NCBI GenBank assembly: GCA_900770145.1 | Contig: CAAGJL010000030.1 | Coordinates: forward strand, 1 to 48,818 | Length of the DNA: 48,818 bases | Source of the DNA: Clostridia bacterium | GTDB lineage: Bacteria; Bacillota; Clostridia; Oscillospirales; CAG-272 | Reading direction: 5' to 3' | In this document: piece by piece, positions 5,144-47,122 of the stretch | How positions within the stretch are numbered: the first letter of the stretch is position 1 | Layout: every line of letters begins with the position of its first letter | Translations under genes and position numbers: made by a program | The notes under the pieces: model-generated | Seen by the model: the letters and a program-made list of their open reading frames with translations, nothing else | What the model was told of the DNA's origin: nothing | Database searches by the model: none

Positions 5144-6052
5144 ATGACAAACGAAATCCACCGCCGGCGGGCGGGGTTGTCGCCGCGGCAGGTACAGGAG
5201 GCGCGCCGCGCGCACGGCGAAAACCGGTTCAGCGAGGCAAAGCGGCAGGGGTTCTGGCGGCATTTTCTTGCCAATCTCGGCGACCCTGTCATCAAAGTGT
5301 TGCTGGCGGCGCTTGCCGTCAACCTCCTGCTGCTTTTTCGCGGCAGGGACTGGTTTGAAACCGTCGGCATTGCGGTCTCCGTGTTTCTTGCCACTTTTAT
5401 CTCCACCCTCTCGGAATACGGAAGCGAGGCGGCGTTCAACCGACTTTGCGAGAGCTGCGGCACGGCGTTTTGCCGGGTGCGGCGCGGAAACGTGACCGAA
5501 ATCCCGGTCGCCGAAGTGGTGGTGGGCGACGTGGTTCTGCTTTCCCCCGGTGAGAAAATCCCCGCGGACGGGGTGCTTTTTGAAGGGAAACTGACGGTAG
5601 ATCAATCGGCGCTCACGGGCGAGAGCCGCGAGGCGGAAAAGTCCCCCTCCCCCGTGCGCGGCGCCCTCTCGCCCGACTCCCCTGCCGGGTTGTTTGCCGG
5701 GTGCACCGTGCTTTCCGGCGAGGGGGAAATGGAGGTCGCCCGCGTGGGGGACGCCACCATGCTTGGCGGCATTTCGGGCGAACTGCAACAGGCGACCGGC
5801 GACAGCCCGCTCAAGCGGCGCCTCTCGAAACTGGCGAGGCAGATCAGCGTGGTGGGCTACCTCGCGGCGGGGCTGTGCGTGGCGGCATTCCTTTTTGACC
5901 GCCTGTTTATCGACTGCGGCTTTTCGGGCGCGGTGCTGCTCTCGCGCGTGCGCGATTTTCCTTTTCTCGCCTCGCTCCTCTTAAACGCCCTCACGCTGGG
6001 ACTGACCGTCGTGGTCATGGCTGTCCCCGAGGGCAATGTGCTGTTAGTATAA
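5144..6052 (+). pseudogene. P-type (IIA, Ca2+-type) cation ATPase, N-terminal fragment truncated by prophage insertion
   Basis: ATG 5144 with AAAAAGGAGG RBS. Cation-ATPase N-terminus (GLSPRQVQEARRAHGENRF) and TGES actuator motif. The host-derived frame ends ...VVVMAVPEG at 6030, then reads 5 phage-derived codons (NVLLV) to TAA 6050-6052. Confidence 0.9.
6016..6051. other. attL (host half-site CATGGCTGTCCCC, core GA at 6029-6030, phage half-site GGGCAATGTGCTGTTAGTATA)
   Basis: CCCCGAGGG is shared with attR. The phage arm ends in GTTAGTATA, the exact inverted copy of TATACTAAC at 44820-44828. Confidence 0.8.
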
Positions 6053-6094
6053 CAGGGGTAGCCGGTTGGCTACCCCTGTTATTGTTTTGTTTTC
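6051..6094. terminator. bidirectional intrinsic terminator at the left prophage end
   Basis: Perfect 13-bp stem AACAGGGGTAGCC (6051-6063) / GGCTACCCCTGTT (6068-6080) with loop GGTT, followed by ATTGTTTTGTTTTC on the + strand. It lies just after the stop of the truncated ATPase fragment and downstream of the - strand gene ending at 6110. Confidence 0.75.
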
Positions 6095-6109
6095 GCATTT
6101 GTTATGTTG

Positions 6110-6988
6110 TTATTGCGTTGCTGTGTTTTGCTGTTGCACCGTTTCTTCCGGGCTTTCTTTTGCGCACCACTCTTTGCACAGGCGGATCATGTAGATCTGG
6201 TTTTTCTTGAATCCGGCTTCCACTTCCGTGATATTGAGAAAACCGTTACTGCGACCGAAAATCAGAGCGAAGAGAATCGGCAGCATCCGAATCCCCCATT
6301 GAATCAGGGCAGTCCACGAGAAATTGAACACGAGGTCGATGCAAACGGTGCCGGAAAATATCGTCATAAGCGCGCGCCACAGCATACCGGACATTTTGTT
6401 CACCTTCTCAAGTTTATGCCCGGACATCCCCATCGGGCGCGACCTGCGGACGCTGTTCTCGTCACAGGAAATCAGGTCGGATTTCTTAATTGCCACCGGT
6501 TTTGCGCGGTTGCACTTGATGATTGCCAGCTTCACGCGGAAACGCATTTTCTGCCGCAGAATGGCATGCAACGGCATCGGAAGGTATTTCGCGGCGTACT
6601 CTTCGTAATTCAGGTCATACGGAAGCAGGATTCCTTTCCGGTATTCCACCAATTCGGACTTGATATAATCCTCCAGGAAATCCGGGAGTTTGCCGATGAG
6701 ATTGCCGTGCAGCAAAGAATCTCTTTCCGTCTGATACTCCTTCGCCGTTGCGAGATATTCTCCGTCCTGCTTTCCGTCCATCTTTCCCTTGTTATAGCAA
6801 TGATTGTAGGTCATTGTGGTGACAATATAGAGCAGTACGGACAGAGCGGTAATTCTATTGATTCCCTGAAAGGAAAACCCGAAATCCGTGAAGTTTACTG
6901 CCGTGGCGATGACAATCGTGACGAAAATCACGATGTCGCCCCATTTCACCCCCGCTTTTCCGGGTTCCTTTTCTCTCACGTCAAACAT
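6110..6988 (-). CDS. membrane protein, unknown function (last gene of the late region)
   Basis: 292 aa with AAGGAG RBS. Two N-terminal and two C-terminal hydrophobic helices flank a soluble region of about 140 aa. More AT-rich than the flanks. No motif recognised. Confidence 0.75.
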   Translation of the reverse strand: MFDVREKEPGKAGVKWGDIVIFVTIVIATAVNFTDFGFSFQGINRITALSVLLYIVTTMTYNHCYNKGKMDGKQDGEYLATAKEYQTERDSLLHGNLIGKLPDFLEDYIKSELVEYRKGILLPYDLNYEEYAAKYLPMPLHAILRQKMRFRVKLAIIKCNRAKPVAIKKSDLISCDENSVRRSRPMGMSGHKLEKVNKMSGMLWRALMTIFSGTVCIDLVFNFSWTALIQWGIRMLPILFALIFGRSNGFLNITEVEAGFKKNQIYMIRLCKEWCAKESPEETVQQQNTATQ

Positions 6989-7000
6989 TGTTTACTCCTT

Positions 7001-7378
7001 TCACACCGGGGTCTCCCGGTCTGCGTACCTGTTTCTCTGCATGCACACCAGAGCGCTGAGAGCCGACCCGACAAGACCCCCGATGCAGATGGCAAACATC
7101 TGACCGGAAATGTTCATCAAGACATAGGAAATCCCGGCGCCGATAGTCCAGAGCACCGGCATGGAGGCGTTCATCACAAACTCAAACATGCTTTTGAATT
7201 TTTTGAAAAACGGGATGGAAGCAATCAGGGCCACCACGACAAGACCGCCGGATACCACGGGCTTTGAGCCGGTTCTGACCCAGATGGGAAAGCAATAGCA
7301 CGCCACGGCAATCGGGGGGAGAGCCCCCACAATACGGGAAACAAGATCCCACAGGTCGTAAAGTTGCCGTTTTGTCAT
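7001..7378 (-). CDS. small polytopic membrane protein (holin-like by size and position only)
   Basis: 125 aa with AAGGAGA RBS and about four hydrophobic segments. Located after the fibre genes. Confidence 0.7.
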   Translation of the reverse strand: MTKRQLYDLWDLVSRIVGALPPIAVACYCFPIWVRTGSKPVVSGGLVVVALIASIPFFKKFKSMFEFVMNASMPVLWTIGAGISYVLMNISGQMFAICIGGLVGSALSALVCMQRNRYADRETPV

Positions 7379-7381
7379 CGC

Positions 7382-8146
7382 TTACTCTCCTTTTTCCGCT
7401 TCTTCCGGCTTTGCCTCGGCGGATACCTCCACGGGCTCTCCGATTGCTTTGAGATAGTCGATATTCATCATCCGCTTGCCTGCTTCGTCAATCGTGCGGG
7501 AGTTCTGAAAAATATCCTTCAGCATTGTTGCCACACCAACCGCGGCAAGGCGCGCCTGCTCGGAGCTTTCCGAATTTCCGTTCAAGGCTTCTTTCAGTTC
7601 CGAGAGACCTTTATACACTTTTTCCAGTGCCGCGATGGTGCCGGAAACGCCCTCTTTGACGGCTTCCCCGGTTTCTTTCTGGGTATTGATGTCTTTCTTG
7701 AGCAAAAGCAGATCGTCGTTGGTGCTCCTGATAGAGACCTCCTGCCTTTTCCGCAGGACAAAGAATGTAATTCCGATCACAACGATAAAAATCATCGCAA
7801 CCGTTGTGACGATGTTTTCCGGCTTGAAAAACTCCTCCAGCCGGTCGGCAAGCGTGACATCCTCGCCGTTGGTGCTCTCCCACTGCTCCATCAGTTTTAC
7901 GATGTTCTCCGCCAGCCCCTGCGGAAGTTCGTCTTTGATCATCGCATATACCTTGTCGGCAATCTCTTTGTAATCCAGCGAATCGTTCTCGGGCTGTTTC
8001 GTCTCCGTTTCTCCCTCGCCCTCTTCCGGCTTCGTTTCCGTCTCGCCCCCGGCGGGCGGGGTTTCCGCGTCCTCTGCCGCCGCCCAAAGCGGGAGAGCGC
8101 ACAGAGCAAGCAGCAGCACCAGTACCGCAACAATCAGTCTTTTCAT
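7382..8146 (-). CDS. bitopic secreted/membrane protein with acidic ectodomain and coiled-coil tail
   Basis: 254 aa with AAGGAGG RBS. Signal peptide MKRLIVAVLVLLLALCALPLWAAA, an E/T/P-rich acidic stretch, a central TM helix (IVTTVAMIFIVVIGITFFVL), then a coiled-coil-like C-terminus. Confidence 0.75.
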   Translation of the reverse strand: MKRLIVAVLVLLLALCALPLWAAAEDAETPPAGGETETKPEEGEGETETKQPENDSLDYKEIADKVYAMIKDELPQGLAENIVKLMEQWESTNGEDVTLADRLEEFFKPENIVTTVAMIFIVVIGITFFVLRKRQEVSIRSTNDDLLLLKKDINTQKETGEAVKEGVSGTIAALEKVYKGLSELKEALNGNSESSEQARLAAVGVATMLKDIFQNSRTIDEAGKRMMNIDYLKAIGEPVEVSAEAKPEEAEKGE

Positions 8147-8159
8147 GTTTCATTCCTCC

Positions 8160-8846
8160 TTAAACCACTTCGTACCCGTCGATATGCGCGGATACTCTCT
8201 GTTCGGTTTTGTGATATGCCGTCATCAGCTTGTACACGGCATCCAGCAAATCATCATAATCCTTGGAGCAGGAAATGTACCTGCCCTTCTCCCCGGTTTT
8301 CACTTCCATATGCAGCACGTTCGTGGGGAGCCCACGCGGGAAAGAAGCGCAGACGAGATATTTCCCGTCCGTCAGAAACTCCCCCGGCACGCACACGGTG
8401 CCGCCGTGAAGCGCGGCGTCATAGGTGCCGCCATCCTCCCGCCGGAAATGAAACACCGTGTCCAGCGGCGCGTCGATTTCAATGGTCAGGCCGTTGCCGC
8501 ACTCCTCACTGTACCGGCTGGTACAAAAGATGGCGTTTTCCATATAAATCATTTTCATTGCGCTGTTTTCCTCCACAACCCTTTCGCTTTTTCCGTTCAT
8601 TTGCCCCTGCAACTCATACCGACACAGCCGCGCCAGCCCGCACCCGAACCGATCTGCCCGGAATCGGATACGCCGAACCTCGTGTTCTTTCATGATCTGA
8701 GAAAGCTGGAGCGAAAACGCCTCTTTCATGTCGCGCCACGTGGCGAAAACGCCCTTTGTCGCGTCCCCCCGGAACGTGACGGTCAGCACGCCGTCGAGGA
8801 AGTGAAAGGCGTAAAAGGTGTCAGACCCGAAAACTTCTGTTTCCAC
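8160..8846 (-). CDS. hypothetical protein downstream of the fibre gene
   Basis: 228 aa. GTG start 13 nt after the fibre stop. No motif recognised. By position it could be a fibre-assembly or accessory protein. Confidence 0.65.
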   Translation of the reverse strand: METEVFGSDTFYAFHFLDGVLTVTFRGDATKGVFATWRDMKEAFSLQLSQIMKEHEVRRIRFRADRFGCGLARLCRYELQGQMNGKSERVVEENSAMKMIYMENAIFCTSRYSEECGNGLTIEIDAPLDTVFHFRREDGGTYDAALHGGTVCVPGEFLTDGKYLVCASFPRGLPTNVLHMEVKTGEKGRYISCSKDYDDLLDAVYKLMTAYHKTEQRVSAHIDGYEVV

Positions 8847-8859
8847 CGTGCGCCGCCTT

Positions 8860-11268
8860 TCAGGAAATCTCCGCCCGCGTTTTGCCGGCGAAGGTGTTTT
8901 CGTATTTTTTGATCAGTGTTTTCTGCACGCTTGCCCTGACCGCCTGTTCTGCCGCCTCCAGTTCTTCCGCAAGACCGCGCAGCCGCTCCCGCAGGTCGTT
9001 GACGGCGTCTCTTGCCGCCTGCCGCGCGACCCTGGTGTCGGCGTATTCCTCCTCGGTGAGAAGACCCTCGGCAAGTTTTGCGGTCTGATAATCCGTGCTG
9101 TCAAGATACTGTTGCCGCTCGGCAAGCATCGTGTCAAGAAGCGCACGCTCTTTGCGCAACTCCCGCGTGGCTTCCTCGTATTCCCTGCTGAATCGCCAGT
9201 TGCGGCGGTGCATCCCCTCTGCCCACGCGCGCTTGAAATAGTTCCGGTCGCCTTCGGTCAGCCCGTTCCAGTATTCCGCGTATTCCGGCGCGGTCAGGCG
9301 CGGGTAAAAGAGTTCCACCTTATCGCCGACCTGAATGCCCCCGGCAAGATACCGCCCCTTGAACGTCATCAGGGTATAGTGCCGCACCGGGGCGGCGGGC
9401 ACAATCTCCTCACTGCCAGTATAAGTGACAATATCGCCTGTTGCCGTGCACACCCGACTCTCTCCCGGCACCAGCTGCGTCCAGTTAATCAGCTGGTCGC
9501 GGTCGATCTCCCAGAAAAACTGGTTGCCGAACACGTCCACGGTTTTCCCGTCCGAAAAGGACAAACGATGGTACTTGTCGCATTCGCCGACCACCGGGGG
9601 CACGACGGCGCGGGTCTGCGTGAGTCTGCCTTTGGCGGGCGACCAGAACGCCAGATAATCCCCTGCCTGCACGTCCTCGATGTTTTTCTCGGTGATCTCG
9701 CCGGTGTCCTTATTGCGCAGCAAGACAGGTGTCCCCTCGATGAAGCAGGTGACTGTTTGCCGGCTGAAATGGCGCACCGGAATCACGGAGCAGACGACGC
9801 TTTCATAGGAACCGGGCGACACGTAACCGGTCACGGTCACAGTGCCATCGGCGTTGTTGCGGACACCGGCATAGTTCAGATTTCCGCCGTAATCATATGG
9901 GGCGGTGTTTGCCACCATCTGCCCGTTGTGCAACACGTAGGTCACAAGGTTGTTGCCGGTATAGGTACTGGCGTCAAACCGGATCAGGTACGTCCGGTCT
10001 CCGCGCACGGTGGCGACCTCGGCGGAGCCCTCTCCGCCGTTGCCGGAGGTGTTGGTGAAAACAACCGCGTCCGCTTTTGCCGCGTCCACCGTCCGTCGGT
10101 TGGCAATCCCGAGGTCATCCGTCGGGTCTTGCATCCGGCAGCTGCCGTCCGCCTCACGGCAAAGTACCGTGTTGCCGCCCGTTCCGGAACCGGAAGCCGG
10201 CAGCGTCGTCTGTCCGCCTTCGGGGGTCACGGCGTAGACCCGCCTGTCCCCGGCGGAGGTCACTTTCCCCAGCGCGCCGATGCTCTCGGCGGTGATGCTC
10301 TCCGCGCCGGCGCCGGGGTCTCCTTTTTCCCCTTTTTCGCCCTTGTCCCCTTTGTTGCCCTTTTCTCCTTTGATGCCGGCGGCGCCGGAAAGATCGGTCA
10401 CAAATCCAAAGCCGTAATCGTTTCTCACATACAGTTTGGCGTTGTCCTCGTCCTCCACAGAGGAACTGATCATCACCATTTTGCCGTAAGGCACATTCTC
10501 CGCGTCGGCATTCATCTGCCCCACGGAAGGGTAGGTTTTGAACACGGCAAACGGATCGCCCTTCTCCCCCTTTTCCCCGGTGGCGCCGTCACTCCCGTTG
10601 GTCACGGTAAAGGTTTTGGCCTGCCCATCGGTCAGGGTCACGGTATAGGTGTCGGTTTTGCCCTCGGTGGCGGTTTTGACGATGTTGGCAATCCCGGTGC
10701 CGGTGGCGCCGGTAGCACCGGTAAGACCGGTATCGCCCCGCTCGCCCTTTTCCCCTCGGTCGCCCTTCAGCGTCCCCGCGCGGAAAGCGGAAAAAACCGT
10801 GTTCATAGTGCCCGCCACGTTTTCCAGATCCTGCACGCGTTTGGTCAGGTCGTTGCAGCCGTTGTATGCCTCTACCAGCGCATCAAACTCCGACGTGGAC
10901 TCCAGATCGATATCGTGGATGACCGCTTCCCGCACGCAGACCGAGAAAACAGGGGCGGAAACAGCACCTGCGGCGTTGGTAACCGTCAGCTGGCAGTCAA
11001 ACGTGCCCACTGCGGCGGTGGCGTTGCCTGACAGGTAATAGGTAATTGTGCCGTCGTTGTTGATGGTGCAGCTGCTCACCAGTTCCGTGCCGTCCGGCTT
11101 CACGGCGGACAGCAGGCAGGAACAATCCTTCGTGACCCGATAGGGCTTTCCGTCCTCGGTCAGTACAAAAATAATCGTTCGCAGGGAATCCCCCCGGTTG
11201 AATTGCAACAGAGTCTGCGAGCCTTTGTTGTGCATGTCCAGCAACACTCTGTATTCCACGTTGTTCAT
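8860..11268 (-). CDS. tail fibre / receptor-binding protein with BppU-like N-terminus, three collagen-like Gly-X-Y runs and a Hint (intein-like) domain
   Basis: ATG 11268 with AAGGAGA RBS. Gly-X-Y runs at 10693-10764, 10552-10587 and 10306-10377. CFIEGTPVLL... starts at Cys codon 9745-9747 and the domain runs to about 9322, followed by a coiled-coil C-terminus. The + strand ORF 8818-11031 is antisense. Confidence 0.8.
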   Translation of the reverse strand: MNNVEYRVLLDMHNKGSQTLLQFNRGDSLRTIIFVLTEDGKPYRVTKDCSCLLSAVKPDGTELVSSCTINNDGTITYYLSGNATAAVGTFDCQLTVTNAAGAVSAPVFSVCVREAVIHDIDLESTSEFDALVEAYNGCNDLTKRVQDLENVAGTMNTVFSAFRAGTLKGDRGEKGERGDTGLTGATGATGTGIANIVKTATEGKTDTYTVTLTDGQAKTFTVTNGSDGATGEKGEKGDPFAVFKTYPSVGQMNADAENVPYGKMVMISSSVEDEDNAKLYVRNDYGFGFVTDLSGAAGIKGEKGNKGDKGEKGEKGDPGAGAESITAESIGALGKVTSAGDRRVYAVTPEGGQTTLPASGSGTGGNTVLCREADGSCRMQDPTDDLGIANRRTVDAAKADAVVFTNTSGNGGEGSAEVATVRGDRTYLIRFDASTYTGNNLVTYVLHNGQMVANTAPYDYGGNLNYAGVRNNADGTVTVTGYVSPGSYESVVCSVIPVRHFSRQTVTCFIEGTPVLLRNKDTGEITEKNIEDVQAGDYLAFWSPAKGRLTQTRAVVPPVVGECDKYHRLSFSDGKTVDVFGNQFFWEIDRDQLINWTQLVPGESRVCTATGDIVTYTGSEEIVPAAPVRHYTLMTFKGRYLAGGIQVGDKVELFYPRLTAPEYAEYWNGLTEGDRNYFKRAWAEGMHRRNWRFSREYEEATRELRKERALLDTMLAERQQYLDSTDYQTAKLAEGLLTEEEYADTRVARQAARDAVNDLRERLRGLAEELEAAEQAVRASVQKTLIKKYENTFAGKTRAEIS

Positions 11269-11319
11269 GCCGAAAATATCTCCTTTTTTCTTCCATCTTA
11301 CCACGCGGACAGGCGGTTA

Positions 11320-29558: not shown

Positions 29559-29568
29559 TGCTTCCTCC

Positions 29569-31605: not shown

Positions 31606-31609
31606 CTTC

Positions 31610-35758: not shown

Positions 35759-35762
35759 TGTT

Positions 35763-37666: not shown

Positions 37667-37821
37667 ACGCCCTCCTCAAACTCCAACACCGTCTCCCGCG
37701 TCTTGCCGCCGGGTTTCAGATCGGAAGCCAGCCTCACCGCGTACCCTGCTTTGACCAGCAGGGTGGCAAGGGTGAGGTAGTCATCGTTGGTGAGTTTTCC
37801 ACGCAATGCTCTGATTTTCAT
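37636..37821 (-). CDS. hypothetical protein
   Basis: 61 aa, directly after ssb. Overlaps the following small ORF by 31 nt. Confidence 0.45.
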   Translation of the reverse strand: MKIRALRGKLTNDDYLTLATLLVKAGYAVRLASDLKPGGKTRETVLEFEEGVCGTSETSPR

Positions 37822-37833
37822 CTCTGCACCTCC

Positions 37834-38292: not shown

Positions 38293-38518
38293 GTGTGCTT
38301 TCCTCCTCTGCCATGGAATATCGGGCAAATCTCGTTTTTTCGCCCAGCCTGTTGGTACCGGTGATATATTCCGTTCGGATGCGGTACCCCATCCGTTTCA
38401 GGTCGTTGATGCGGCTGGCAAGCCGCATACATCCGATGTCGGCAACCGCCTGAAGCGGCGTGATGCTGCCAAACTGCCGGATATACGCCACAATGCGCTC
38501 GTTTTGCGTTGCTTTCAT
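38279..38518 (-). CDS. small winged-helix/HTH DNA-binding protein
   Basis: 79 aa from ATG 38518 (GGAGGA RBS, ATGA overlap). NERIVAYIRQFGSITPLQAVADIGCMRLASRINDLKRMGY. Confidence 0.6.
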   Translation of the reverse strand: MKATQNERIVAYIRQFGSITPLQAVADIGCMRLASRINDLKRMGYRIRTEYITGTNRLGEKTRFARYSMAEEESTHGIQ

Positions 38519-39075
38519 TTCGTATCCTCCGTTTCTTTTTCTCCCCAAAGGGATAACAGGTTTGCAATCTCGTCCGGCGTGCGGGTTTCCACGCCAACAG
38601 CGCGGCAGTCCTGCACGATGTGGTCAATCAGGCGGGACATCTGCGCGCGGTCATAGGTAGAGGAGCCGTAGTACAAGATGACATTGGTGCACCCCGCGAT
38701 CCTGCTGGGGAAAACCTCCGTCTGCCAGCCAAGCCCGTTTTTCTCCCACCCGTCACAGACCCGCGCCACCGCGTCGTTTTGCACGCATACCACCTCGGAA
38801 GCGCCGCCGATACCCCGCACGGCGTTCCGGTAAACTTCCTCTTTCGTCAGCCCCAGCTTTTCCGCCAGTCTGTCCGCCAGCACAAAGAAATAAGCGTTGG
38901 CGTCAAGGTTTCTTTTTTCCCGGTAGGGCTTGATTTCCACGGAAAGTTTTTCTTTCCCGGAAAACTCGTCCGCAAGAATCTCAAAGTCGCTTTGCTCGTT
39001 GACCTCCAGCAAAAGCCTTGGCTTGCCCGTTTTGTAATCGACGGTCGTATCGATAATTTTTCCCGTTACACGCAT
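38515..39075 (-). CDS. NinB/Orf-like recombination mediator
   Basis: 186 aa from ATG 39075. KRNLDANAYFFVLADRLA and YGSSTYDRAQMSRLIDHIVQDCRAVGVE parallel the lambda NinB segments RSLDQNRKLWACLGDVS and GQSTSRMRVGEFAELLELIQAFG as I recall them. Confidence 0.55.
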   Translation of the reverse strand: MRVTGKIIDTTVDYKTGKPRLLLEVNEQSDFEILADEFSGKEKLSVEIKPYREKRNLDANAYFFVLADRLAEKLGLTKEEVYRNAVRGIGGASEVVCVQNDAVARVCDGWEKNGLGWQTEVFPSRIAGCTNVILYYGSSTYDRAQMSRLIDHIVQDCRAVGVETRTPDEIANLLSLWGEKETEDTK

Positions 39076-39620
39076 GGAAATCTCCCCTCCATCAGGCACC
39101 CGGCAAGATAGGTGAGCCTCGGCAGGTACACCCCGCGCACCCATTCCCCGTCATAGGTGACCGGGTGCGTGCTTCTTCTCGCCGGGTCTATCGGATTGAA
39201 AAAGTTGTCGTAATCCTTTTCGGTCAGCCCGTAGGAAACGATGTTCGCTTTCCGGAAGCCGGTGGCAAACATCTGCACCTGCACCTGCCAAAGGTATTTT
39301 TTCGGCATCCGGAAGCCCTTCTCAAAGCCGTATGTCTTGCACTCAAAAATCGTGTCGTCGGTGTTTCCGTCCAGGTTTACGCGCAGTCTCAGATCCTCTA
39401 TGAGAAACTGCCTGTCCGTTTCCATCGGGATACCGAGCGACTCCAGAATCCGGTGTTCGTAATGCGTCCCTGCGGCGGTGTACCGGTTTTCAAAGTGATC
39501 CCGGTTCAGCCCCAGTTTCTGCATCCACCATTTTTCAAAGGTCGCCGTGTTCCGGTTGCCGAGGATAAACGCCGTGTCGGAAGCGCCGAACCACCCGCTC
39601 CTGTCCTTGTCCGCAATCAT
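39066..39620 (-). CDS. YqaJ/lambda-Exo-type recombination exonuclease (PD-(D/E)XK)
   Basis: 184 aa. GWFGASDTAFILG N-terminus and DGNTDDTIFECKT catalytic-type D...ExK motif. Adjacent to the annealase gene. Confidence 0.75.
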   Translation of the reverse strand: MIADKDRSGWFGASDTAFILGNRNTATFEKWWMQKLGLNRDHFENRYTAAGTHYEHRILESLGIPMETDRQFLIEDLRLRVNLDGNTDDTIFECKTYGFEKGFRMPKKYLWQVQVQMFATGFRKANIVSYGLTEKDYDNFFNPIDPARRSTHPVTYDGEWVRGVYLPRLTYLAGCLMEGRFPCV

Positions 39621-40240
39621 ACCGACAGCATCTTCTTTTCAAAGCGGTCCAGTTGGTCGAAAAAGGTGAACAGCATCTTGACCTCGTCCTCGGTCATTCC
39701 GCACTTCTCCGCGATCTCCCGGGTGGTCAGGTGCTTATCCCGGAGAAGCCGCGTGTACTCCTGCATAAACCGCTCCTTCACAGCAAACAGATTGTGCCGC
39801 CCGAGGTCTTCTTCCTCCGGTGCGTCGCTCTCTTCCTTTGCCCAGAGTGAAAACCCAAGCCCGTACCGGAATGCCACCGCTTTGACAAACGCCCGCGTCA
39901 TCGCCTTAAAAACCGTATTCTGATTGAGCGAGTTGTCCTTCACCGGGTTGATGCCGTTGAGCAAAGGATAACTGTACAGAAACCGGTCGTCGTCCACCGT
40001 GACCTCAATGCGCACCTCATAGCAGCGGTTGGTGTTCCCCTTGCTGTCGGTAAACGTCTGATCCGACATAAACAGGGAACTGCCGTTCTCCCCGTACACC
40101 GGGGTGAAGAACACCCGCTCCGCTCCGTTGTCGTGCAACAGATCCACCACCGTAGCCCATGGCAGGTAGTCCGCCCCGTCCCGCTGCTTGACATAAGGCG
40201 AAACATCCAGTCGCCGCAACTCAGAATAAGATTTCAGCAT
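39617..40240 (-). CDS. Rad52/Sak-like single-strand annealing protein (DUF1071 type)
   Basis: 207 aa. GADYLPWATVVDLL and VAFRYGLGFSLWAKEE resemble Sak/DUF1071 annealases. Paired with the exonuclease (ATGA overlap). Confidence 0.65.
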   Translation of the reverse strand: MLKSYSELRRLDVSPYVKQRDGADYLPWATVVDLLHDNGAERVFFTPVYGENGSSLFMSDQTFTDSKGNTNRCYEVRIEVTVDDDRFLYSYPLLNGINPVKDNSLNQNTVFKAMTRAFVKAVAFRYGLGFSLWAKEESDAPEEEDLGRHNLFAVKERFMQEYTRLLRDKHLTTREIAEKCGMTEDEVKMLFTFFDQLDRFEKKMLSV

Positions 40241-40437: not shown

Positions 40438-40521
40438 TTTTTCGTCCTCCCGTTTCGCTTATTTTGATTTTTGTTTCAATTAACAGACTTTTTATTTCAC
40501 TTACCGATTTTTTATTTCTGT

Positions 40522-40731
40522 TTAGTTATCTTCTTCCGCGTCCTCCGGGTCGTCCGTCTCTTCCAGGTTGTCACTCCCGCAACACGGGCAAACAGGTACC
40601 GCCGCCGGCACCCATACGTCTCTCCCCCAGTACTCCTCATAGGTTCCGTCATCGCGGATGTCCGCCTCGTCGTCGCGAAATACTTCCCCGCACCTGCAAC
40701 AACGGTAAAATGTGCTGCAGAATTCCATCAT
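40522..40731 (-). CDS. small zinc-ribbon protein with acidic tail
   Basis: 69 aa with AAGGAGG RBS. CRCGEVF...CPCCGS. Confidence 0.6.
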   Translation of the reverse strand: MMEFCSTFYRCCRCGEVFRDDEADIRDDGTYEEYWGRDVWVPAAVPVCPCCGSDNLEETDDPEDAEEDN

Positions 40732-40743
40732 CTTCCGCCTCCT

Positions 40744-41004
40744 TCACTCGTCTGGGCAGCAGACTTGCCGCCGCGTGCGTTCCTTTTCGGCAGCAGCGCC
40801 GCAAAAAAGGAAGAACAACATCCTTGCCTCAAAGCACCATTCGCCGACCCGCATCCCTCCGATACCGGGGAAAAGGTGTCTTTTTTCAGCGTGGGCAAGA
40901 AACGCCGCCCGCTGTTTCTCCAACCAGTCAAAATAGTCAGTTGTCAGTTTCTTCCTGCCAGTCGCAAGTTTCCACGCTTCCGGCGGCAACAGATAATTTT
41001 CCAT
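40744..41004 (-). CDS. hypothetical early protein
   Basis: 86 aa from ATG 41004 (AAAGGAAGGA upstream). Overlaps the 3' end of 40937-41140 in another frame, so one of the two extents may be wrong. Confidence 0.4.
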   Translation of the reverse strand: MENYLLPPEAWKLATGRKKLTTDYFDWLEKQRAAFLAHAEKRHLFPGIGGMRVGEWCFEARMLFFLFCGAAAEKERTRRQVCCPDE

Positions 41005-41140
41005 CCGGTTTGTCCTTCCTTTCATATTTGACAATCAGTTCAATCCCCCGCGCGTCATAGATGCGCACCAGCGCCGCAATCCATTTGTCGATGTCCAGCG
41101 TGTCGCGCCACGTCCTTGCGGATTCGTTCGCAGAATGCAT
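40937..41140 (-). CDS. small early protein, paralog of 42990-43211
   Basis: 67 aa with AAGGAG RBS. IDKWIAALVRIYDARGIELIVKYERKD aligns with IEKLLAALVRIFAARGIELCVRYERKD in the other copy. Confidence 0.6.
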   Translation of the reverse strand: MHSANESARTWRDTLDIDKWIAALVRIYDARGIELIVKYERKDKPDGKLSVAAGSVETCDWQEETDN

Positions 41141-41162
41141 ATCCTACTCCTTTTGTAGATTT

Positions 41163-41378
41163 TTATTCTACAAAGTTAGCAAAAAAAATGGTTTGCACTT
41201 CTCCGTCGTCGAGAGCAAGCGCCTTGCTGATAGACTGGACTTCACTGACCAAAAACTCTTTTTTGTTGTGGATCTTATTAAAAAGAGCGGTAGGGGAAAG
41301 CCCAATTTCGCCTGCAAGAGATTTGATGGTAAATTTTCTTTCCCTCATCTTCCCCTGCAATTTGCCGGTGTTTGTCAT
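41163..41378 (-). CDS. Cro-like HTH regulator (first gene of the early lytic operon)
   Basis: 71 aa from ATG 41378 (GGAGG RBS). HTH KSLAGEIGLSPTALFNKIHNKK. Divergent from the repressor gene. Confidence 0.75.
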   Translation of the reverse strand: MTNTGKLQGKMRERKFTIKSLAGEIGLSPTALFNKIHNKKEFLVSEVQSISKALALDDGEVQTIFFANFVE

Positions 41379-41403
41379 ACCCGTTCCTCCTTTGTTGAAT
41401 TTG

Positions 41404-41438
41404 ATTCTACACCGAGTATAGCACGGGTTTTGTAGAAT
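41404..41438. promoter_or_regulatory. operator inverted repeat ATTCTACA(19 nt)TGTAGAAT bracketing the P-cro -10
   Basis: Half-sites at 41404-41411 and 41431-41438. A third palindrome of the same half-site, TTGTAGA(7 nt)TCTACAA, lies at 41153-41173. Confidence 0.55.
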
Positions 41439-41443
41439 GTCAA
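41415..41443 (-). promoter_or_regulatory. early lytic promoter (P-cro)
   Basis: The - strand reads TTGACA (41443-41438), a 17-nt spacer, then TATACT (41420-41415). Followed by GGAGG and ATG 41378. Confidence 0.7.
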
Positions 41444-41483
41444 GACATTTTTTCAAAAAACTTTGACTTTTTTTCAAAAAATG

Positions 41484-41512
41484 TTGATTTTCATTCCCCA
41501 ATATGATATGAT
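41484..41512 (+). promoter_or_regulatory. repressor maintenance promoter (P-cI)
   Basis: TTGATT (41484-41489), a 17-nt spacer, then TATGAT (41507-41512), followed by GGAGG and ATG 41535. Preceded by a tandem 20-nt repeat TTTTTTCAAAAAAYKTTGAY at 41448-41488. Confidence 0.55.
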
Positions 41513-41534
41513 GTAGGTACACGGAGGTGCTACT

Positions 41535-42191
41535 ATGCCCAATCTTACAGAATTCGGAACAAGAATCAAGCAGAAACGGCTTGAACTCAATATGACGCAG
41601 GATGAACTGGCGCGAAAGGTCGGATATACATCCCGGTCAAGTATCAATAAAATAGAACTCGGATTTGTGGATCTTCCACAATCCAAAATTGCCGCAATCG
41701 CCAACGCGCTCGGCACCACGCCCGCATATCTGATGGGGTGGGATTCCGAAAAGAATACCGCCACCTCCCCCTTCGTCGGGTTTTCCAACATCTCCCCCGT
41801 TTCCACCCAGCGCATCCCGATGCTCGGCGAGATTGCCTGCGGCCAGCCGCTCCTGTGCAATGAAGACCACGAAAGTTATATTGAAACCAACTCCGCCATC
41901 AAAGCGGATTTCTGCCTGAGATGCAAGGGTGACAGTATGACCGGGGCAAGAATTTATGACGGAGACATCGTTTTCGTTCACCAGCAGGAAATTGTGGAGA
42001 ACGGGCAGATTGCCGCCGTTGCAATCGGCAACGAAGCCACGCTGAAAAGAGTGTTCTATTACCCGGAAAAAGCAAAGCTGGTGTTGCAAGCCGAAAACCC
42101 GAAATATGAGCCCCTCGTTTTTGTCAACGAGGAGCTCAACGAGGTCCATATCCTCGGCCTTGCCATCATGTTTCAAAGTACCGTAAGATAA
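41535..42191 (+). CDS. cI/LexA-like repressor (XRE HTH + S24 peptidase domain)
   Basis: 218 aa. HTH LNMTQDELARKVGYTSRSSINKIELG. S24 signature CKGDSMTGARIYDGDIVFV (Ser) and ATLKRV (Lys). Confidence 0.9.
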   Translation: MPNLTEFGTRIKQKRLELNMTQDELARKVGYTSRSSINKIELGFVDLPQSKIAAIANALGTTPAYLMGWDSEKNTATSPFVGFSNISPVSTQRIPMLGEIACGQPLLCNEDHESYIETNSAIKADFCLRCKGDSMTGARIYDGDIVFVHQQEIVENGQIAAVAIGNEATLKRVFYYPEKAKLVLQAENPKYEPLVFVNEELNEVHILGLAIMFQSTVR

Positions 42192-42216
42192 ATTTCTATA
42201 GGGAGGAATTTGACAT

Positions 42217-42972
42217 ATGAAAGAGATTTCCGAAAAAAAGAAAAAAGTCCTTTTTGTAGTGGGTGCGGTGCTGTGCTTTTCATTCTTGGTTCTATCTTTT
42301 GCGCTGATACCAACTGCGGCAGAAGAGTATTCGTGCTTTTCAATAGACCGCGAAACCCTCGCTGTTACACATATTTACTTGACCGAAGCGGTGCTTCTGC
42401 TTGCCCTTTCCGCAGTCTCGTTGATCCTTGGCATCGTTCTGTTTATCACTATGGTAATGAGATTTTCCGGCTCGACTAAAAAAGTAATCAGTGCCATTGC
42501 GTTTGCTCTGCTTTTTGTTGCCGTACTTGCGCTTTCCGCTGTGGGTACATGGAATTCCTATGACAATATGCAATATGAAATAGATCGTCAAAAGAAATAT
42601 ATAGAAGACAACACGCTCAGATACACAGAAGTATCCATCGGTGATTTCCTTGATGACGTAAATCGGTTCCCTAAAAAATACGAAGGAAAAGCAGTAACTC
42701 TTGAAGGGTGGGTTCGCGACCCCGACAGTTACTACGATAGCGAAATACCCGGATTGGAGAATGACCGCATCGAGACATTCACCCTATCTTTGGACTCCTG
42801 TTCTGTAACGGTTATCTATTATTTAAGTTCACTTGGCGCGTCCATGCCAAGAGCCTTAAAGGGTGACTATGCCGTGGTAACCGGCGAGGCGCATGTTTTT
42901 TACTCTGAAAAAACTCAAAAATATGTTGCGTATCTGGATAACTCCACCTATGAAATAAAAGACAAAAAATAA
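42217..42972 (+). CDS. membrane protein co-oriented with the repressor (candidate superinfection-exclusion / lysogenic-conversion gene)
   Basis: 251 aa with GGGAGG RBS, starting 25 nt after the repressor stop. About four N-terminal TM helices plus a soluble C-terminal domain of about 120 aa (KYEGKAVTLEGWV...GDYAVVTGEAHVF). AT-rich. Confidence 0.8.
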   Translation: MKEISEKKKKVLFVVGAVLCFSFLVLSFALIPTAAEEYSCFSIDRETLAVTHIYLTEAVLLLALSAVSLILGIVLFITMVMRFSGSTKKVISAIAFALLFVAVLALSAVGTWNSYDNMQYEIDRQKKYIEDNTLRYTEVSIGDFLDDVNRFPKKYEGKAVTLEGWVRDPDSYYDSEIPGLENDRIETFTLSLDSCSVTVIYYLSSLGASMPRALKGDYAVVTGEAHVFYSEKTQKYVAYLDNSTYEIKDKK

Positions 42973-42989
42973 CCCCTGAACGGGAACGG

Positions 42990-43211
42990 TCAGGAAGCAC
43001 CAACCACCCCGCCGCCGTTCCCGTCCTTTCTCTCGTATCTGACGCACAGTTCAATTCCCCGCGCCGCAAAGATGCGCACCAGTGCCGCAAGCAATTTTTC
43101 AATATCCGGCTCGTTCTTCCCCGATTGCGGCAAATTTATACTGCCGGAGCCGTCGCGCGCATATTCTTTATCGGTAACGGGTTCCGGGCGCTTTGCGTCG
43201 TTCAATTTCAT
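42990..43211 (-). CDS. small protein, paralog of 40937-41140 (possibly a decayed copy)
   Basis: 73 aa with a conserved AALVRIFAARGIELCVRYERKD block. GGAGGG abuts the ATG with no spacer, so translation may be poor. Confidence 0.45.
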   Translation of the reverse strand: MKLNDAKRPEPVTDKEYARDGSGSINLPQSGKNEPDIEKLLAALVRIFAARGIELCVRYERKDGNGGGVVGAS

Positions 43212-43293
43212 CCCTCCAAAAAATCAGATAAAGGCATCCGCCTTTTATTGAAAAATATGCCGGACATCACAAAAAAAGAATGGAGCCAGGACT

Positions 43294-43488
43294 ATGAAAA
43301 AACCGAAATTCCCCTTTTCCGAAATCTTTGACAGAGGCGTATATATGTACATCTCTTTCCTGTTTTTGTCCTATTACGCCGTGCAACTGATCCGGCTGGG
43401 AGAACTCAATGCGGTGGAGATCGTTTTATTTGCCGTCTTTGTGGTCTACGCAATCGTTACATTCTTTGTGACAAGCGAAAAGGAGTAA
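43294..43488 (+). CDS. small membrane protein upstream of the integrase
   Basis: 64 aa with two hydrophobic helices. Its stop is 4 nt before the integrase ATG. Confidence 0.55.
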   Translation: MKKPKFPFSEIFDRGVYMYISFLFLSYYAVQLIRLGELNAVEIVLFAVFVVYAIVTFFVTSEKE

Positions 43489-43492
43489 AAAT

Positions 43493-44812
43493 ATGAAAGA
43501 ACCGAAAACCGTCGGCGGCTATATCCGGGTGTCCACCGAAGAGCAGTCGCGGAAAGGGCTTTCGTTGGAGTCTCAAAAAGCCGATATAGAGGATTACTGC
43601 AAACGGCAGGGGTACCGGCTTGCGGGGCTGTACATCGACCGGGGCATCACTGCCCGGAAAAATTTGTATAAACGGACAGCCTTTATGGAGATGATGCAGG
43701 ACGTGAAAAGGCGGAAGATTAACCATGTCGTGGTTATCCGCCTGGATCGATTCTTCCGCAATGTGTATGACTATCACCGTATGATGCACGAGTTTCTTGA
43801 CCCCGCCGGATGTGGCTGGTCGGCAGTGAAGGAGGAGTACGACACCACTACCACCAACGGCAGACTGATGATCAACCTGCGGCTTTCCATCGCGGAACAG
43901 GAGTGCGACCAGGACTCCGACCGGATTAAGGACGTTTTCGCCAACCGCGTCCGGGAGGGATTTGTGGTAACCGGCCATACACCGATCGGGCTGAAGATTG
44001 AAAACAAACGCCTTGTACCGAATGAGGACGCAGACCTCCTGCGGGATATGTTCCAAACTTACCTGCGGCTGAACTCCGTCGGAAAAACGCTGTGCTACAT
44101 CAATGAAAAGTACGGCAGACACTACGATTACACCACAGTCAGAAGAACGCTCACCAAAAGGATTTATATCGGGGAATACCGGGACAATGCGCAATTCTGC
44201 GAGCCGCTGGTCAGCCGGGAAACATTTTTCGCCGTCGAACGGAATCTGCGGCATAACGTCAGAGTCCGGAAAAGTCATAACAACTATATGTTCTGCGGGC
44301 TCTTGCGCTGTGAGGAGTGCGGCAGAACCCTGATCGGCTGCGTCAACCGCGGGCATCTTTACTACCGCTGTAACGGCGCATATATGAACAACGCCTGCCT
44401 CCAGCGGAATTATATCCGCGAGGACGCTGTAGAAGCCTACCTCCTTGAGAACGTGGAACGCCTCGTAGAAGAATATAAATTTGAAATCGAAACCAAAGAA
44501 AAAACGGTTGCTCCAAACAAAAGCAACCGGGAAAAGATTCAGAAAAAAATCGACCGCCTGACCGACCTGTTCGTCAACGGAATGATCGGGATGGACGACT
44601 TCAGAAAACGGAAATCAGAACTCGATGCCCAACTCGAAGAAGAACCGGAGCCCGTTAAAAAAGACCTCACCGCCGTCAACGCCTTCCTCGCCAGAGGACT
44701 CCTCCCCGTGTATCACACCCTTACCCCGGAAGAAAAACAAAGCCTCTGGAGGTCCGCCGTCCAAGAAATCCGCATAAAGGACAAAGAAATCCTCTCCGTC
44801 CGTTTTTTATAA
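43493..44812 (+). CDS. large serine recombinase (phage integrase)
   Basis: 439 aa. Resolvase-type catalytic N-domain GGYIRVSTEEQ (Ser14). Recombinase domain. Zinc-ribbon CGLLRCEECG...YYRCNG. C-terminal coiled coil. Its stop is 8 nt from attR. Confidence 0.92.
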   Translation: MKEPKTVGGYIRVSTEEQSRKGLSLESQKADIEDYCKRQGYRLAGLYIDRGITARKNLYKRTAFMEMMQDVKRRKINHVVVIRLDRFFRNVYDYHRMMHEFLDPAGCGWSAVKEEYDTTTTNGRLMINLRLSIAEQECDQDSDRIKDVFANRVREGFVVTGHTPIGLKIENKRLVPNEDADLLRDMFQTYLRLNSVGKTLCYINEKYGRHYDYTTVRRTLTKRIYIGEYRDNAQFCEPLVSRETFFAVERNLRHNVRVRKSHNNYMFCGLLRCEECGRTLIGCVNRGHLYYRCNGAYMNNACLQRNYIREDAVEAYLLENVERLVEEYKFEIETKEKTVAPNKSNREKIQKKIDRLTDLFVNGMIGMDDFRKRKSELDAQLEEEPEPVKKDLTAVNAFLARGLLPVYHTLTPEEKQSLWRSAVQEIRIKDKEILSVRFL

Positions 44813-44819
44813 ACGTTGG

Positions 44820-44855
44820 TATACTAACTTTACAAACCCCGAGGGGCTGCCGATG
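44820..44855. other. attR (phage half-site TATACTAACTTTACAAACCCC, core GA at 44841-44842, host half-site GGGGCTGCCGATG)
   Basis: Shares CCCCGAGGG with attL. The outer 9-mer TATACTAAC is the inverted copy of 6043-6051. Confidence 0.8.
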
Positions 44856-46601
44856 ATGATTGCGGTGGTGCTTTCCTCCAACATCCGCCGGATGTTGCGG
44901 GATCAGGTGCTGGTGCGCAAACCCGCAGGGATCGAGGCGGCGGGCAGTATGAATATTCTGTTTACCGACAAAACGGGCACGCTCACCCGCGGGCGCCTGA
45001 CCGCCTCCTTTGTGCTGACGGCGGGCGGCACGTTCGGCAGCGTGGCGGAACTGCACAAAAAAGCGCCGGGGCTTTTCCGGCTGTTGTCCCTCTCGGCATA
45101 TGCCAATTCCGGCGCCATGCCGGGAGAGCGGGACGGCAAAGTCGCCGCGCTCGGCGGAAACGCCACCGACCGGGCGCTGCTTTCCGCCTTTCTCCCGTTC
45201 GGCACGCCGGAATATGCGGTGCGGGCGCGACTACCCTTTGACAGCGCCCGTAAATTTGCCGCCGTGCGCTTGGGGGACGGGCGAGTGTTTGTCACCGGGG
45301 CGCCCGAAAAACTGCTGCCCCACGTGCACGCCGCCAAAGACCCGGACGGGTTGCCCGGCGCTTTTTCCCGCAACGTGTTTGCGGGGCAACTGCGGGCGAG
45401 GGCGGAACGCGGCGAACGGGTAATCTTATTGTGCGAAGCCGAAAAAATGCCGGATGAGGACGGCGGAATCCCGCCCCTTTCCCTGCTGGCGGCGGTCAGT
45501 TTCTGCGACCCCGTGCGCCCGGAGGCGGCGGGCGCGGTGGCGACCCTGCGGCGCGCCGGCGTGCAGGTGGTGATGATCACCGGGGACGGGAAAGAGACCG
45601 CCACCCACATCGCCGCCGCGTGCGGAATGCTGAACACGGACTCCGTATGCCTGGACGGCGGCGAACTGGCGGCGCTTTCCGATGAGGAACTCTCGGCGCT
45701 CTTACCCCGCCTTGCGGTGGTGGCGCGCGCCTTGCCCTCCGACAAAAGCCGCCTGGTGCGCCTTGGCAGGGCGGCGGGGCTGGTGGTCGGCATGACAGGG
45801 GACGGCGTGAACGACGCGCCCGCCCTCAAAGCCGCCGACGTGGGCTTTGCCATGGGTAGCGGCACCGGCGTGGCGAAAGAGGCGGGCGATGTGGTGATTC
45901 TGGACGACAACCTTGCCTCCGTGACCCACGCGGTGCTTTACGGGCGCACCATCTTCAAAAGCATCCGCAAATTCATCACGTTACAGCTGATTATGAACTT
46001 CTGCGCCGTGGGCATTTCCGTCATCGGTCCCTTCATCGGGTTTGAATCCCCGGTCACGGTGGTGCAGATGTTGTGGATCAACCTGATTATGGATACCCTC
46101 GGCGGGCTTGCCTTTGCGGGCGAGGCGCCCATGCCGCGCTACCTGAAAGAACCGCCCAAAAAGCGAGACGAGCCGATCCTCACCCGCGGCATTGCGGGGC
46201 GCATTGCGTTTCTCTCCGCTTTCACCGTGGCGCTGTCGGTCTTTTTCTTGAAATCCCCCCTCACGGTACGCGTTTTCCGGCAGATGCCGGGGGATTTGTG
46301 CCTCCTGACCGCCTTCTTTGCGCTCTTTATTTTCGCCGGGGTCTTCAACTGTTTCAATGCGAGAAGCGACCGCGTACGCATGCTTGCCGGGATCCGCAAA
46401 AACAAGGCGTTTTTGCCGATTATGCTGGCGGTGGCGGCGGTGCAGATTGCCTTTGTGTACCTGGGCGGCACGATGTTGCGCACCACGCCCCTGACCCCGA
46501 AAGAACTCGGCGCCACGCTGTTGTTTGCCTTTTCGGTGATTCCGGCGGGCTTTTTGCAGCTGGTATGGAAAAAACTGTGCGGCAAGGGCGATCTTTACTG
46601 A
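44841..46601 (+). pseudogene. P-type (IIA, Ca2+-type) cation ATPase, C-terminal fragment
   Basis: The frame resumes EGLPMMIAVVLSS. Contains the phosphorylation motif DKTGTLT, plus VTGAPEKLL, MITGDGKETA, GDGVNDAPALKAADVGFAMG and C-terminal TM helices. There is no start context of its own other than the internal ATG 44853. Confidence 0.9.
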
Positions 46602-47121: not shown

Positions 47122-47122
47122 A

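Follow-up and report, generated by a model that had tools for sequence, protein, structure and literature searches.

A prophage with a large serine recombinase splits the PEGL codons of a Ca2+-ATPase gene with a sigma-E-like promoter in a gut Clostridia genome

The split Ca2+-ATPase gene, its empty site and the excised phage

We analyzed a 48,818-nucleotide (nt) stretch of Clostridia bacterium DNA (GTDB lineage CAG-272; contig CAAGJL010000030.1 of assembly GCA_900770145.1), termed the window, in which a prophage separates the two parts of a P-type Ca2+-ATPase gene. The translated 5′ part corresponded to amino acids (aa) 1–297 with a P-type ATPase N-terminus and the last residues ...VVVMAVPEG; six phage-derived codons followed VPEG, and the truncated open reading frame (ORF) stopped at 6050–6052. 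The ATPase frame was resumed at 44841/44846 as (EG)LPMMIAV...DKTGTLT...GDGVNDAPALK and reached its stop codon at 46601. Within the prophage, the GC content falls from approximately 0.63 to 0.45–0.60. The features of the split gene are as follows.

5144–6033 (+): Ca2+-ATPase 5′ part, aa 1–297, ending VPEG
6025–6033: attL core CCCCGAGGG, overlapping the empty site in L001, a locus of the uncultured Clostridiales UMGS1122
6034–44845: prophage, 38,812 bp, with bounds taken from the empty site and from 100%-identical attP contigs
44818–44845: attR, composed of the phage arm GGTATACTAAC, 8 nt and the core CCCCGAGGG (44837–44845)
44846–46601 (+): Ca2+-ATPase 3′ part, LPMMIAV... to stop
46669–48049 (+): NfeD and SPFH/HflK-like genes

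The 9-bp direct repeat CCCCGAGGG was present at both junctions (6025–6033 and 44837–44845). Any cut position within it is equivalent, and the earlier cut coordinates of a sequence-only reading of this DNA, 6031–44842, were correct to within this repeat; the insert size is 38,812 bp (6034–44845). The interruption point was the PEGL codons, which encode an ion-site motif of transmembrane segment 4. When the halves were joined in silico, an 881-aa ATPase ORF without stop codon or frameshift was obtained. The rejoined protein carried all four Pfam P-type ATPase domains and matched TIGR01517 (PMCA-type Ca2+-ATPase) with 540 bits, the curated cutoff being 507. This above-cutoff match together with the TGES, PEGL, DKTGT, and GDGxNDxP motifs placed the protein in type IIB, and the nearest solved structures were those of plant ACA8, PMCA1/2, and Listeria LMCA1. 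The junctions and the rejoined ORF thus confirmed that a prophage splits a P-type Ca2+-ATPase gene within its PEGL codons, as the sequence-only reading had claimed. The Glu-Gly codons of PEGL (GAGGGG) lie 7 nt ahead of ATGATG (Met-Met) at 44853, and the 3′ fragment might be translated if transcripts of the phage integrase gene (int) read through.

The rejoined protein was scanned against 185,579 species genomes, which gave 80 orthologue loci with 53–98% identity. The ATPase was uninterrupted in all of them. The best orthologue was that of UMGS1122 (L001), 98% identical to the rejoined ATPase, and its locus aligned with window positions 5078–6033 (92.8% nt identity) and 44837–48558 (96.1%). The two alignments were contiguous in UMGS1122 and overlapped by exactly the 9-bp core. 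This locus represents a close relative's empty site, and the match is not by chance. Because the alignment is contiguous with exactly this overlap, we concluded that the insertion is genuine and precise and has not become fixed in the lineage. Apart from the insertion, the host gene is intact, as proposed from the sequence, judging from the defect-free rejoined ORF and the contiguous orthologue. Fixation of the same insertion in relatives, which the sequence-only reading had named as a sign against its proposal, was not found: the search for uninterrupted alleles showed the gene intact in the closest relative and in every one of the 80 loci. The attB sequence was ...GTCCCCGAGGGGCTGCCG..., and CCNGARGG was present in 80/80 ATPase orthologues. 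Over roughly 50 nt around the core, codon positions 1 and 2 matched the window in at least 90% of the orthologues. On this comparison, a protein-coding gene could hardly offer a more conserved landing pad than attB.

The excised form of the phage was found in public gut metagenomes. An exact-protein look-up located the integrase on ENA contig ERZ27229799 k119_308497, on which int directly precedes the phage left-end genes; the same kind of look-up gave no record for the N-terminal ATPase fragment. The retrieved 7.3 kb of this contig consisted of window 40493–44845 joined to 6025–9000 with a 9-bp overlap and was 100% identical to the window; the whole contig is 38,931 bp, that is 38,812 + 119, as expected of a circle assembled at k = 119. 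In ERZ28569202, scaffold_626 (38,867 bp = 38,812 + 55, the element plus the assembler k-mer) contained the same attP junction with 100% identity, and two loci on it were collinear with the circle. The same assembly also has a 3,794-bp attR contig, 99.7% identical to the window, which begins 36 nt inside the phage and extends into the ATPase 3′ part, NfeD, and SPFH. Capsid-region variants were present at 98–99% identity in two further samples, and the exact attP junction pattern gave 0 matches in IMG/VR. Because the exact attP junction lies on two contigs sized as element plus k-mer, we concluded that the phage exists in excised or circular form in nature. Both junctions that the earlier reading had asked for were accordingly found, attB in UMGS1122 and attP in two gut metagenomes, so that its counter-case of no such junction does not apply. 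Precise excision, by which the composite gene becomes whole and the element circular, is supported by the in silico join, the attB of the relative, and the attP contigs; we infer that the phage's own recombinase is the catalyst.

This enzyme is encoded at the right end of the prophage.

43493–44812 (+): large serine recombinase, 439 aa, with catalytic Ser14 in YIRVSTEEQ; PF00239 Resolvase, PF07508 Recombinase, and PF13408 Zn_ribbon_recom, all above cutoff

The three Pfam domains occur in the expected order, which bore out the earlier identification of a large serine recombinase in the insert, and YIRVSTEEQ and the arginines of RLDRFFRN were invariant in eight integrase relatives. Its stop codon had been placed 8 nt from attR; this was approximately right, as the measured distances were 5 nt to the attP-type inverted-repeat arm and 24 nt to the core. 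In the reconstructed attP, the arms TATACTAAC/GTTAGTATA flank a 26-nt spacer with GA at its centre, and the identity shared with attB is the 9-bp core. This structure fits the expectation for large serine recombinases: inverted-repeat arms, a central dinucleotide, and short identity with attB. The same attP architecture was observed 3′ of int in eight metagenomic relatives, in the form TTG(T/G)ACTAAC, approximately 26 nt, and GTTAGT(A/C)CAA. The tRNA and Rfam scans of the window gave no match, and the att site is therefore not of the tRNA type.

Genome scans identified four further contigs (L081/L084, L082/L085, L089, and L090) with integrases 48–60% identical to that of the window. In these contigs, the int stop codon directly abuts an opposite-strand P-type ATPase N-terminal part ending in VPEG or VPDG, and the targeted ATPases are 42–52% identical to the window's. 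Spacer nucleotides 13–14 are GA in the window and TC in L081/L090, in which the prophage is inverted relative to the gene. The simplest reading, since attP is symmetric and the insertion was found in two orientations, is that crossover would occur at the GA of the Glu codon and that this dinucleotide would set the orientation. Target choice, as judged from these sequences, is a property of the integrase clade. The "Coriobacteriaceae" label of L081 (CAVEOF010000003.1) looks doubtful and was not relied on; its integrase and ATPase N-terminal part are 88% DNA-identical to those of the Clostridia-binned L082, and its ATPase promoter is sigma-E-like.

A metagenome scan with the integrase alignment recovered relatives at 45–51% identity with an intact attP-like palindrome and no ATPase flanks, and IMG/VR yielded no close integrase relatives. 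Separately, the integrases of L086, L087, L095–L101, and L106 are 45–53% identical to the window's and are followed by an intact attP-like palindrome. The central dinucleotide is GT in L106 and appears to depart from GA/TC in the others as well; these phages probably use targets other than the Glu codon of PEGL, because it is not GA/TC.

The sigma-E-like promoter of the ATPase and the spoIIIA neighbourhood

The ATPase gene is preceded by a sigma-E-like promoter, and a second one stands in front of the spoIIIA operon at the left of the window.

203–231 (+): spoIIIAA promoter, sigma-E-like, GTCTATT-N14-CATAAGAT, 19.8 bits, 24 nt ahead of spoIIIAA
248–4959 (+): spoIIIAA-AG operon, with Pfam matches to Spore_III_AA/AB/AC-AD/AE and weak AF and AG matches
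5088–5116 (+): ATPase promoter, sigma-E-like, TTCTTTT-N14-CATACAGT, the top matrix match in the window, 22.0 bits

A CATAYANT/CATANNNTA element was present between −70 and −20 in 46 of 75 orthologue upstream regions, compared with 9 of 449 control genes of the same loci (Fisher p = 6e-37). When the regions were anchored on CATA, a T stood exactly 18 nt upstream of the C in 91%, and the consensus was kCATTTT-N14-CATAtAnT. Many orthologue upstream regions carried textbook forms such as TCATATT-N14-CATATAGT, and the layout corresponds to that described for sigma-E. A weight matrix was then trained on 40 orthologue promoters, with the window and L001 left out. On both strands of the 48.8-kb window it gave only two matches above 14 bits, the ATPase and spoIIIAA promoters; for the latter, 0.01 matches at 19.8 bits are expected per shuffled window. 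In the spoIIIA loci of two other species (L141 and L142), the sole match of at least 12 bits lay 26 nt ahead of spoIIIAA (17.0 and 20.4 bits, respectively). The targeted ATPases of L084 and L085, which are outside the training set, scored 19.1 and 22.7 bits. No sigma-70-like site (TTGACA-N17-TATAAT) was found in 4900–6200. In both C. difficile and B. subtilis, the spoIIIA operon depends on sigma-E, and sigma-E and sigma-K share a common −10 element and differ in the −35 element, which is ATA in sigma-E promoters and AC in sigma-K ones (PMC3789822). Because the sigma-E-like promoter is conserved and matches the spoIIIAA promoters, we consider it likely that this ATPase family is a sigma-E-type sporulation gene expressed in the mother cell. 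The "mother-cell-type −10" noted earlier upstream of the ATPase thereby extends to a promoter that is conserved across the family and matches that of spoIIIAA in the same organism.

The position next to spoIIIA had also been taken as evidence of a sporulation role, and here the earlier proposal did not hold. The stated distance of 184 nt from spoIIIAG to the ATPase start is right for the ORF 4471–4959; the identity of this ORF as spoIIIAG is weak (TIGR02830, 45 bits, below cutoff), its place being that expected after spoIIIAA-AF. Proteins matching spoIIIAA, AD, AE, or AG were encoded within 10 kb of the ATPase in 0/80 orthologue loci. Downstream, the NfeD-SPFH synteny was kept in the 11 closest ATPase relatives. 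Homology with L001 starts only at window position 5078, between spoIIIAG and the ATPase promoter, and the spoIIIA operon of UMGS1122 is on a separate contig, whose similarity to the window ends immediately 3′ of AG. We rejected the adjacency as support for a sporulation role, as it is not conserved.

Several side observations concern this neighbourhood. No spoIIIAH was present after spoIIIAG (4959–5078), where synteny with both UMGS1122 contigs is broken, and the operon appears to be truncated or rearranged in the window genome. An approximately 565-bp repeat-bearing insertion (1638–2202) separates spoIIIAB from spoIIIAC; by comparison with L141, the operon of UMGS1122 lacks it. The insertion contains a dispersed repeat, GTAAAGGGAGCTGGCGC...GAGGGATTGTAAAAG...TTTGTGTCAGGTACAACCCCTC (approximately 2005–2110), of which UMGS1122 has a copy after spoIIIAG (L141 11488–11600). 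Judged by the shared reading-frame translation, a similar repeat lies at the right end of the window (approximately 48330–48800, minus strand). The repeat had no Rfam match and looks like a miniature inverted-repeat transposable element that landed in the spoIIIA operon. A second intergenic repeat of approximately 130 nt, with the hairpin GGGGGATTTTTGAAAAAATCCCCC, occupies window 1–131 upstream of spoIIIAA; in L001 it is found at 9780–9900 and 15000–15134, just upstream and approximately 2.5 kb downstream of the ATPase gene. This second repeat may mark the rearrangement breakpoints that joined spoIIIA to the ATPase.

Prophage genes and candidate directionality factors

The prophage encodes recognizable replication, packaging, head, tail-fibre, and lysogeny functions, arranged as follows.

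6049–6082 (+): terminator-like hairpin with a 15-bp stem at the phage left end, just 3′ of the truncated ATPase stop codon
6110–8846 (−): four ORFs (292, 125, 254, and 228 aa) without family match, several with hydrophobic stretches by eye
8860–11304 (−): tail fibre with collagen-like repeats; PHROG tail-fibre families, and BppU_N/Collagen on the identical gene in L147
11356–21408 (−): giant 3350-aa polyvalent protein with an ADP-ribosyltransferase domain at aa 1706–1892; PF18760 ART-PolyVal, phrog_22978
24395–33217 (−): virion and packaging module, with the next five genes
24395–26314 (−): internal virion protein
26854–27930 (−): major capsid
29083–29496 (−): Prp-like peptidase
29569–31632 (−): portal (P22/SU10-type)
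31610–33217 (−): large terminase
33840–40240 (−): early genes for DNA methyltransferase, Lar-like protein, RusA-type resolvase, replication initiator/loader, SSB, NinB, RecE-like nuclease, and Sak-like annealase
40937–41140 (−): 67-aa small protein of the early lytic operon, motif AALVRIYDARGIEL; copy 1 of the candidate recombination directionality factor (RDF)
41535–42191 (+): CI/LexA-type repressor (HTH_3 and Peptidase_S24)
42990–43211 (−): 73-aa paralogue beside int, 51% identical to copy 1, candidate RDF copy 2

The hairpin at 6049–6082 would block transcripts of the ATPase promoter from entering the prophage. The four left-end ORFs gave no match in Pfam and PHROG profile searches and may form a lysis cassette. 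At the right end, the plus-strand lysogeny module consists of the S24 repressor, an unknown membrane protein, and the 439-aa recombinase. No tape-measure, sheath, or tube gene was recognized among the prophage ORFs, and the virion is possibly podovirus-like for this reason. In INPHARED, only 66–69% nt matches to unannotated human-faecal phage contigs were obtained. The description of the insert as a fully equipped phage stands for the replication, packaging, head, and tail-fibre genes; it is likely as a whole, and unproven by annotation alone, with no endolysin recognized.

Two of the phage proteins have further peculiarities. The ORF of the 3350-aa protein takes up a quarter of the phage genome, with ART-PolyVal as its sole recognized domain, and the C-terminal 900 aa match phrog_22978 (proteins of approximately 3500 aa, function unknown). 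Because its neighbours are the internal virion protein on one side and the tail fibre on the other, it may be an effector that is packaged in the virion and injected. The tail-fibre protein (8860–11304, minus strand) contains collagen-like GEKGxKGD repeats, and its C-terminal part, CFIEGTPVLLRNKDTGE..., resembles an autoprocessing module of the Hint/intein type.

The two small proteins share the family motif AL..IY..RGIEL. The same duplication was found in L084 (561–659 and 3134–3256) and L085 (898–1026 and 3750–3869), in which the second copy is divergent from int; in most of the integrase loci examined, weaker family members were encoded on the strand opposite to int and upstream of it. Excision by large serine recombinases requires a cognate RDF. 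On this pattern, we consider the small "RGIEL" protein a candidate RDF, and the int-proximal duplicate the best candidate for one under separate control. A weak sigma-E-like site (10.5–10.9 bits) was present 41–48 nt ahead of the int-proximal small gene in all three phages. In the window, this site (43252–43280, minus strand) reached 10.9 bits, below the threshold, and lay 48 nt ahead of the 73-aa gene. Regular-expression searches of the prophage for sigma-E/K-like promoters gave loose matches only. In L084 and L085, sigma-E-like sites of 15.3–16.0 bits are directed into the int operon. Between the divergent small gene and the int operon of these two phages (L084 3282–3313 and L085 3890–3921, plus strand), promoter-like elements stand face to face, the −35 of one overlapping the −10 of the other: GTCATATATATGAG...CGAATAGAATATAC; the plus-strand element is the one that reaches 15–16 bits with the sigma-E-type matrix.

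Possible roles of excision and comparison with known systems

As the best explanation of the whole, we propose, with about an even chance of being right, an active phage residing in a sporulation Ca2+ pump gene and excised either via SOS or in the mother cell. The phage sits, through the action of the large serine recombinase that it encodes, in the PEGL codons of a Ca2+ pump gene that is probably of the sigma-E type. Lysogeny would be silent during growth: the gene would be one that growing cells can do without, and it would provide the phage with a highly conserved attB. SOS induction through the LexA-type repressor would lead to excision and lytic growth. In the terminal mother cell, excision would rebuild the pump, with the forespore retaining the prophage. 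The tie of excision to sporulation, drawn by analogy with SPbeta in spsM, has at most even prospects of its own. The serine-recombinase elements in mother-cell genes that the consulted papers describe are excised during sporulation or in a growth-phase-dependent manner (PMC4191935, PMC5595907, PMC10747680). Furthermore, transcription of Solibacillus yloB takes place in the mother cell at engulfment, and the protein is located around the forespore and required for heat-resistant spores (PMC12999246).

A number of observations weigh against this explanation. The phage has an S24 repressor and a near-complete gene set, and ordinary induction suffices for attP circles; the attP and attR contigs of one metagenome could likewise represent free virions and lysogens with no sporulation link. 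Pfam/PHROG searches of the prophage recognized no endolysin, and infectivity is therefore presumptive. The window protein fits the PMCA-type TIGR01517, and its likeness to YloB is one of analogy. The promoter was assigned from sequence, and the window −35, TTCTTTT, is a poor fit to the ATA-type −35. The non-conserved spoIIIA adjacency counts on the same side. No matrix match above 14 bits was obtained anywhere in the window prophage, and the window has no sigma-E-like site ahead of int such as those of L084 and L085. The 10.9-bit site before the 73-aa gene lies in AT-rich DNA, and the "RGIEL" protein had no Pfam or PHROG match.

A more specific form of the proposal is one that we put forward tentatively and doubt more than we trust. 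In it, a clade of infectious phages of gut Clostridia would be specialised on the PEGL Glu codon of the sigma-E Ca2+ pump and would carry two RDF copies, one under SOS control for lytic growth and the other under mother-cell control beside int. Developmental excision would take place in the terminal mother cell only, and spore calcium loading would depend on it.

The strongest competitor of sporulation-linked excision is plain insertional inactivation, which we hold to be possible though short of probable. Here PEGL would serve as a conserved landing site in a gene dispensable for growth, excision would be by SOS only, and lysogens would sporulate without the pump or with another transporter compensating. 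The LexA/CI-type S24 repressor, the near-complete phage gene set, and the lack of a strong sporulation-type promoter in the prophage are consistent with such a simple lysogen, as is the sufficiency of ordinary induction for attP circles. The position of attB among the most conserved stretches of the ATPase gene also fits, and so does an insertion that is not fixed, being absent from the closest relative and the 80 orthologue loci. However, if the pump matters as YloB does (PMC12999246), its loss in every spore would burden the host, a spore-transmitted gut anaerobe, and the prophage alike. Described serine-recombinase elements in mother-cell genes, moreover, are excised developmentally or growth-phase-dependently, and the duplicated int-proximal small gene with its weak sigma-E-like site recurs in two phage lineages. 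An improbable alternative is that the ATPase is not a sporulation gene, the CATA motif being a vegetative promoter or other regulatory element and an ordinary prophage knocking out a housekeeping Ca2+ efflux pump: CATATAnT includes TATAnT, a sigma-A-like −10, T-tracts of upstream terminators overlap the T-rich "−35" in the nearest clade, spoIIIA is not a conserved neighbour, and the sporulation assignment was made from promoter sequence, yet the T 18 nt upstream, which unlike the C before ATA is not fixed by anchoring, is 91% conserved at sigma-E spacing, several orthologues have the canonical TCATATT-N14-CATATAGT, the trained matrix selects non-homologous promoters, those of spoIIIAA, in three genomes and no further site, and no TTGACA-N17-TATAAT site lies upstream of the ATPase.

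If the proposal of sporulation-linked excision is true, an ion pump joins the short list of sporulation genes split by mobile elements, with the phage still alive, and the phenomenon extends from Bacillus and pathogenic clostridia to hard-to-culture spore-forming gut commensals. The promoter result by itself predicts membership of the sigma-E regulon for a PMCA-type Ca2+-ATPase in dozens of gut Clostridia species (bins labeled Oscillospiraceae, Eubacteriales, and Clostridia). This prediction bears on the route by which calcium reaches the forespore for calcium dipicolinate (Ca-DPA), recently tied to YloB (PMC12999246). In practical terms, an integrase family with a defined, conserved 40–50-bp target, a GA/TC orientation rule, and natural attB, attP, attL, and attR sequences is in hand.

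The window prophage is probably a member of the SPbeta/skin class of sporulation-gene intervening elements. It shows the structural traits of that class, and mother-cell expression of its target is suggested by the promoter. Mechanistically, the closest system is SPbeta in spsM of B. subtilis, with the integrase SprA and the RDF SprB. Both are apparently viable phages with a terminal large serine recombinase and a repressor-controlled lytic route, both are inserted inside an ORF that precise excision restores, and spsM is a mother-cell gene, as the window target is predicted to be from its promoter. In contrast to spsM, which functions in polysaccharide synthesis, the window target is a membrane ion pump, and the host belongs to an uncultured gut Clostridia lineage. 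The phage itself is unrelated to SPbeta: it is 38.8 kb long, has no recognized tail tube or tape measure, and encodes the giant polyvalent protein. For SPbeta, excision confined to sporulation and control of the RDF gene by a sporulation promoter have been demonstrated, whereas both are proposed by analogy for the window prophage. SPbeta has one RDF gene with two promoters, whereas the candidate RDF of the window is duplicated, which, if true, would be a possible variation on the known class.

The window element resembles skin (sigK), vfbin (spoVFB), vrin (spoVR), gin (gerE), and yin (yabG) in its serine recombinase, short core repeat, and composite gene that is intact after excision, and, as predicted from the promoter, in interrupting a sporulation gene of the mother cell. 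These elements are mostly defective or non-phage, whereas the window element was found as a free circular genome. Like YloB of Bacillus and Solibacillus, the target is a P-type Ca2+-ATPase; the mother cell produces YloB, and the window gene has a spoIIIA-type (sigma-E) promoter. Unlike YloB, the window protein is PMCA-type (TIGR01517) with a predicted function, the likeness resting on PMC12999246 and the promoter, and unlike yloB, which has no findable sigma-E motif (PMC12999246), the window ATPase family has a clear one. As in phi10403S (Listeria comK) and phiSa3 (hlb), a host ORF harbours the prophage, whose reversible excision could activate the gene. Such examples of active lysogeny mostly involve tyrosine integrases and respond to infection cues. 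The window prophage differs from most of them in its serine integrase, and its switching cue is hypothetical.

In the literature searched, the targets of intervening elements and of serine-integrase prophages did not include a P-type ATPase, in agreement with the earlier reading, to which no ATPase target of such elements was known. If the more specific form of the proposal is true, the pump would be the first transporter target and, to our knowledge, the first case in uncultured Oscillospiraceae-type gut bacteria (the label of related bins). The phenomenon itself is familiar from the systems above, and what is new is the choice of target, a host among the uncultured gut Clostridia, the evidence of an excised circular genome, the apparent clade-wide specificity, and the predicted sigma-E signature of a Ca2+ pump.

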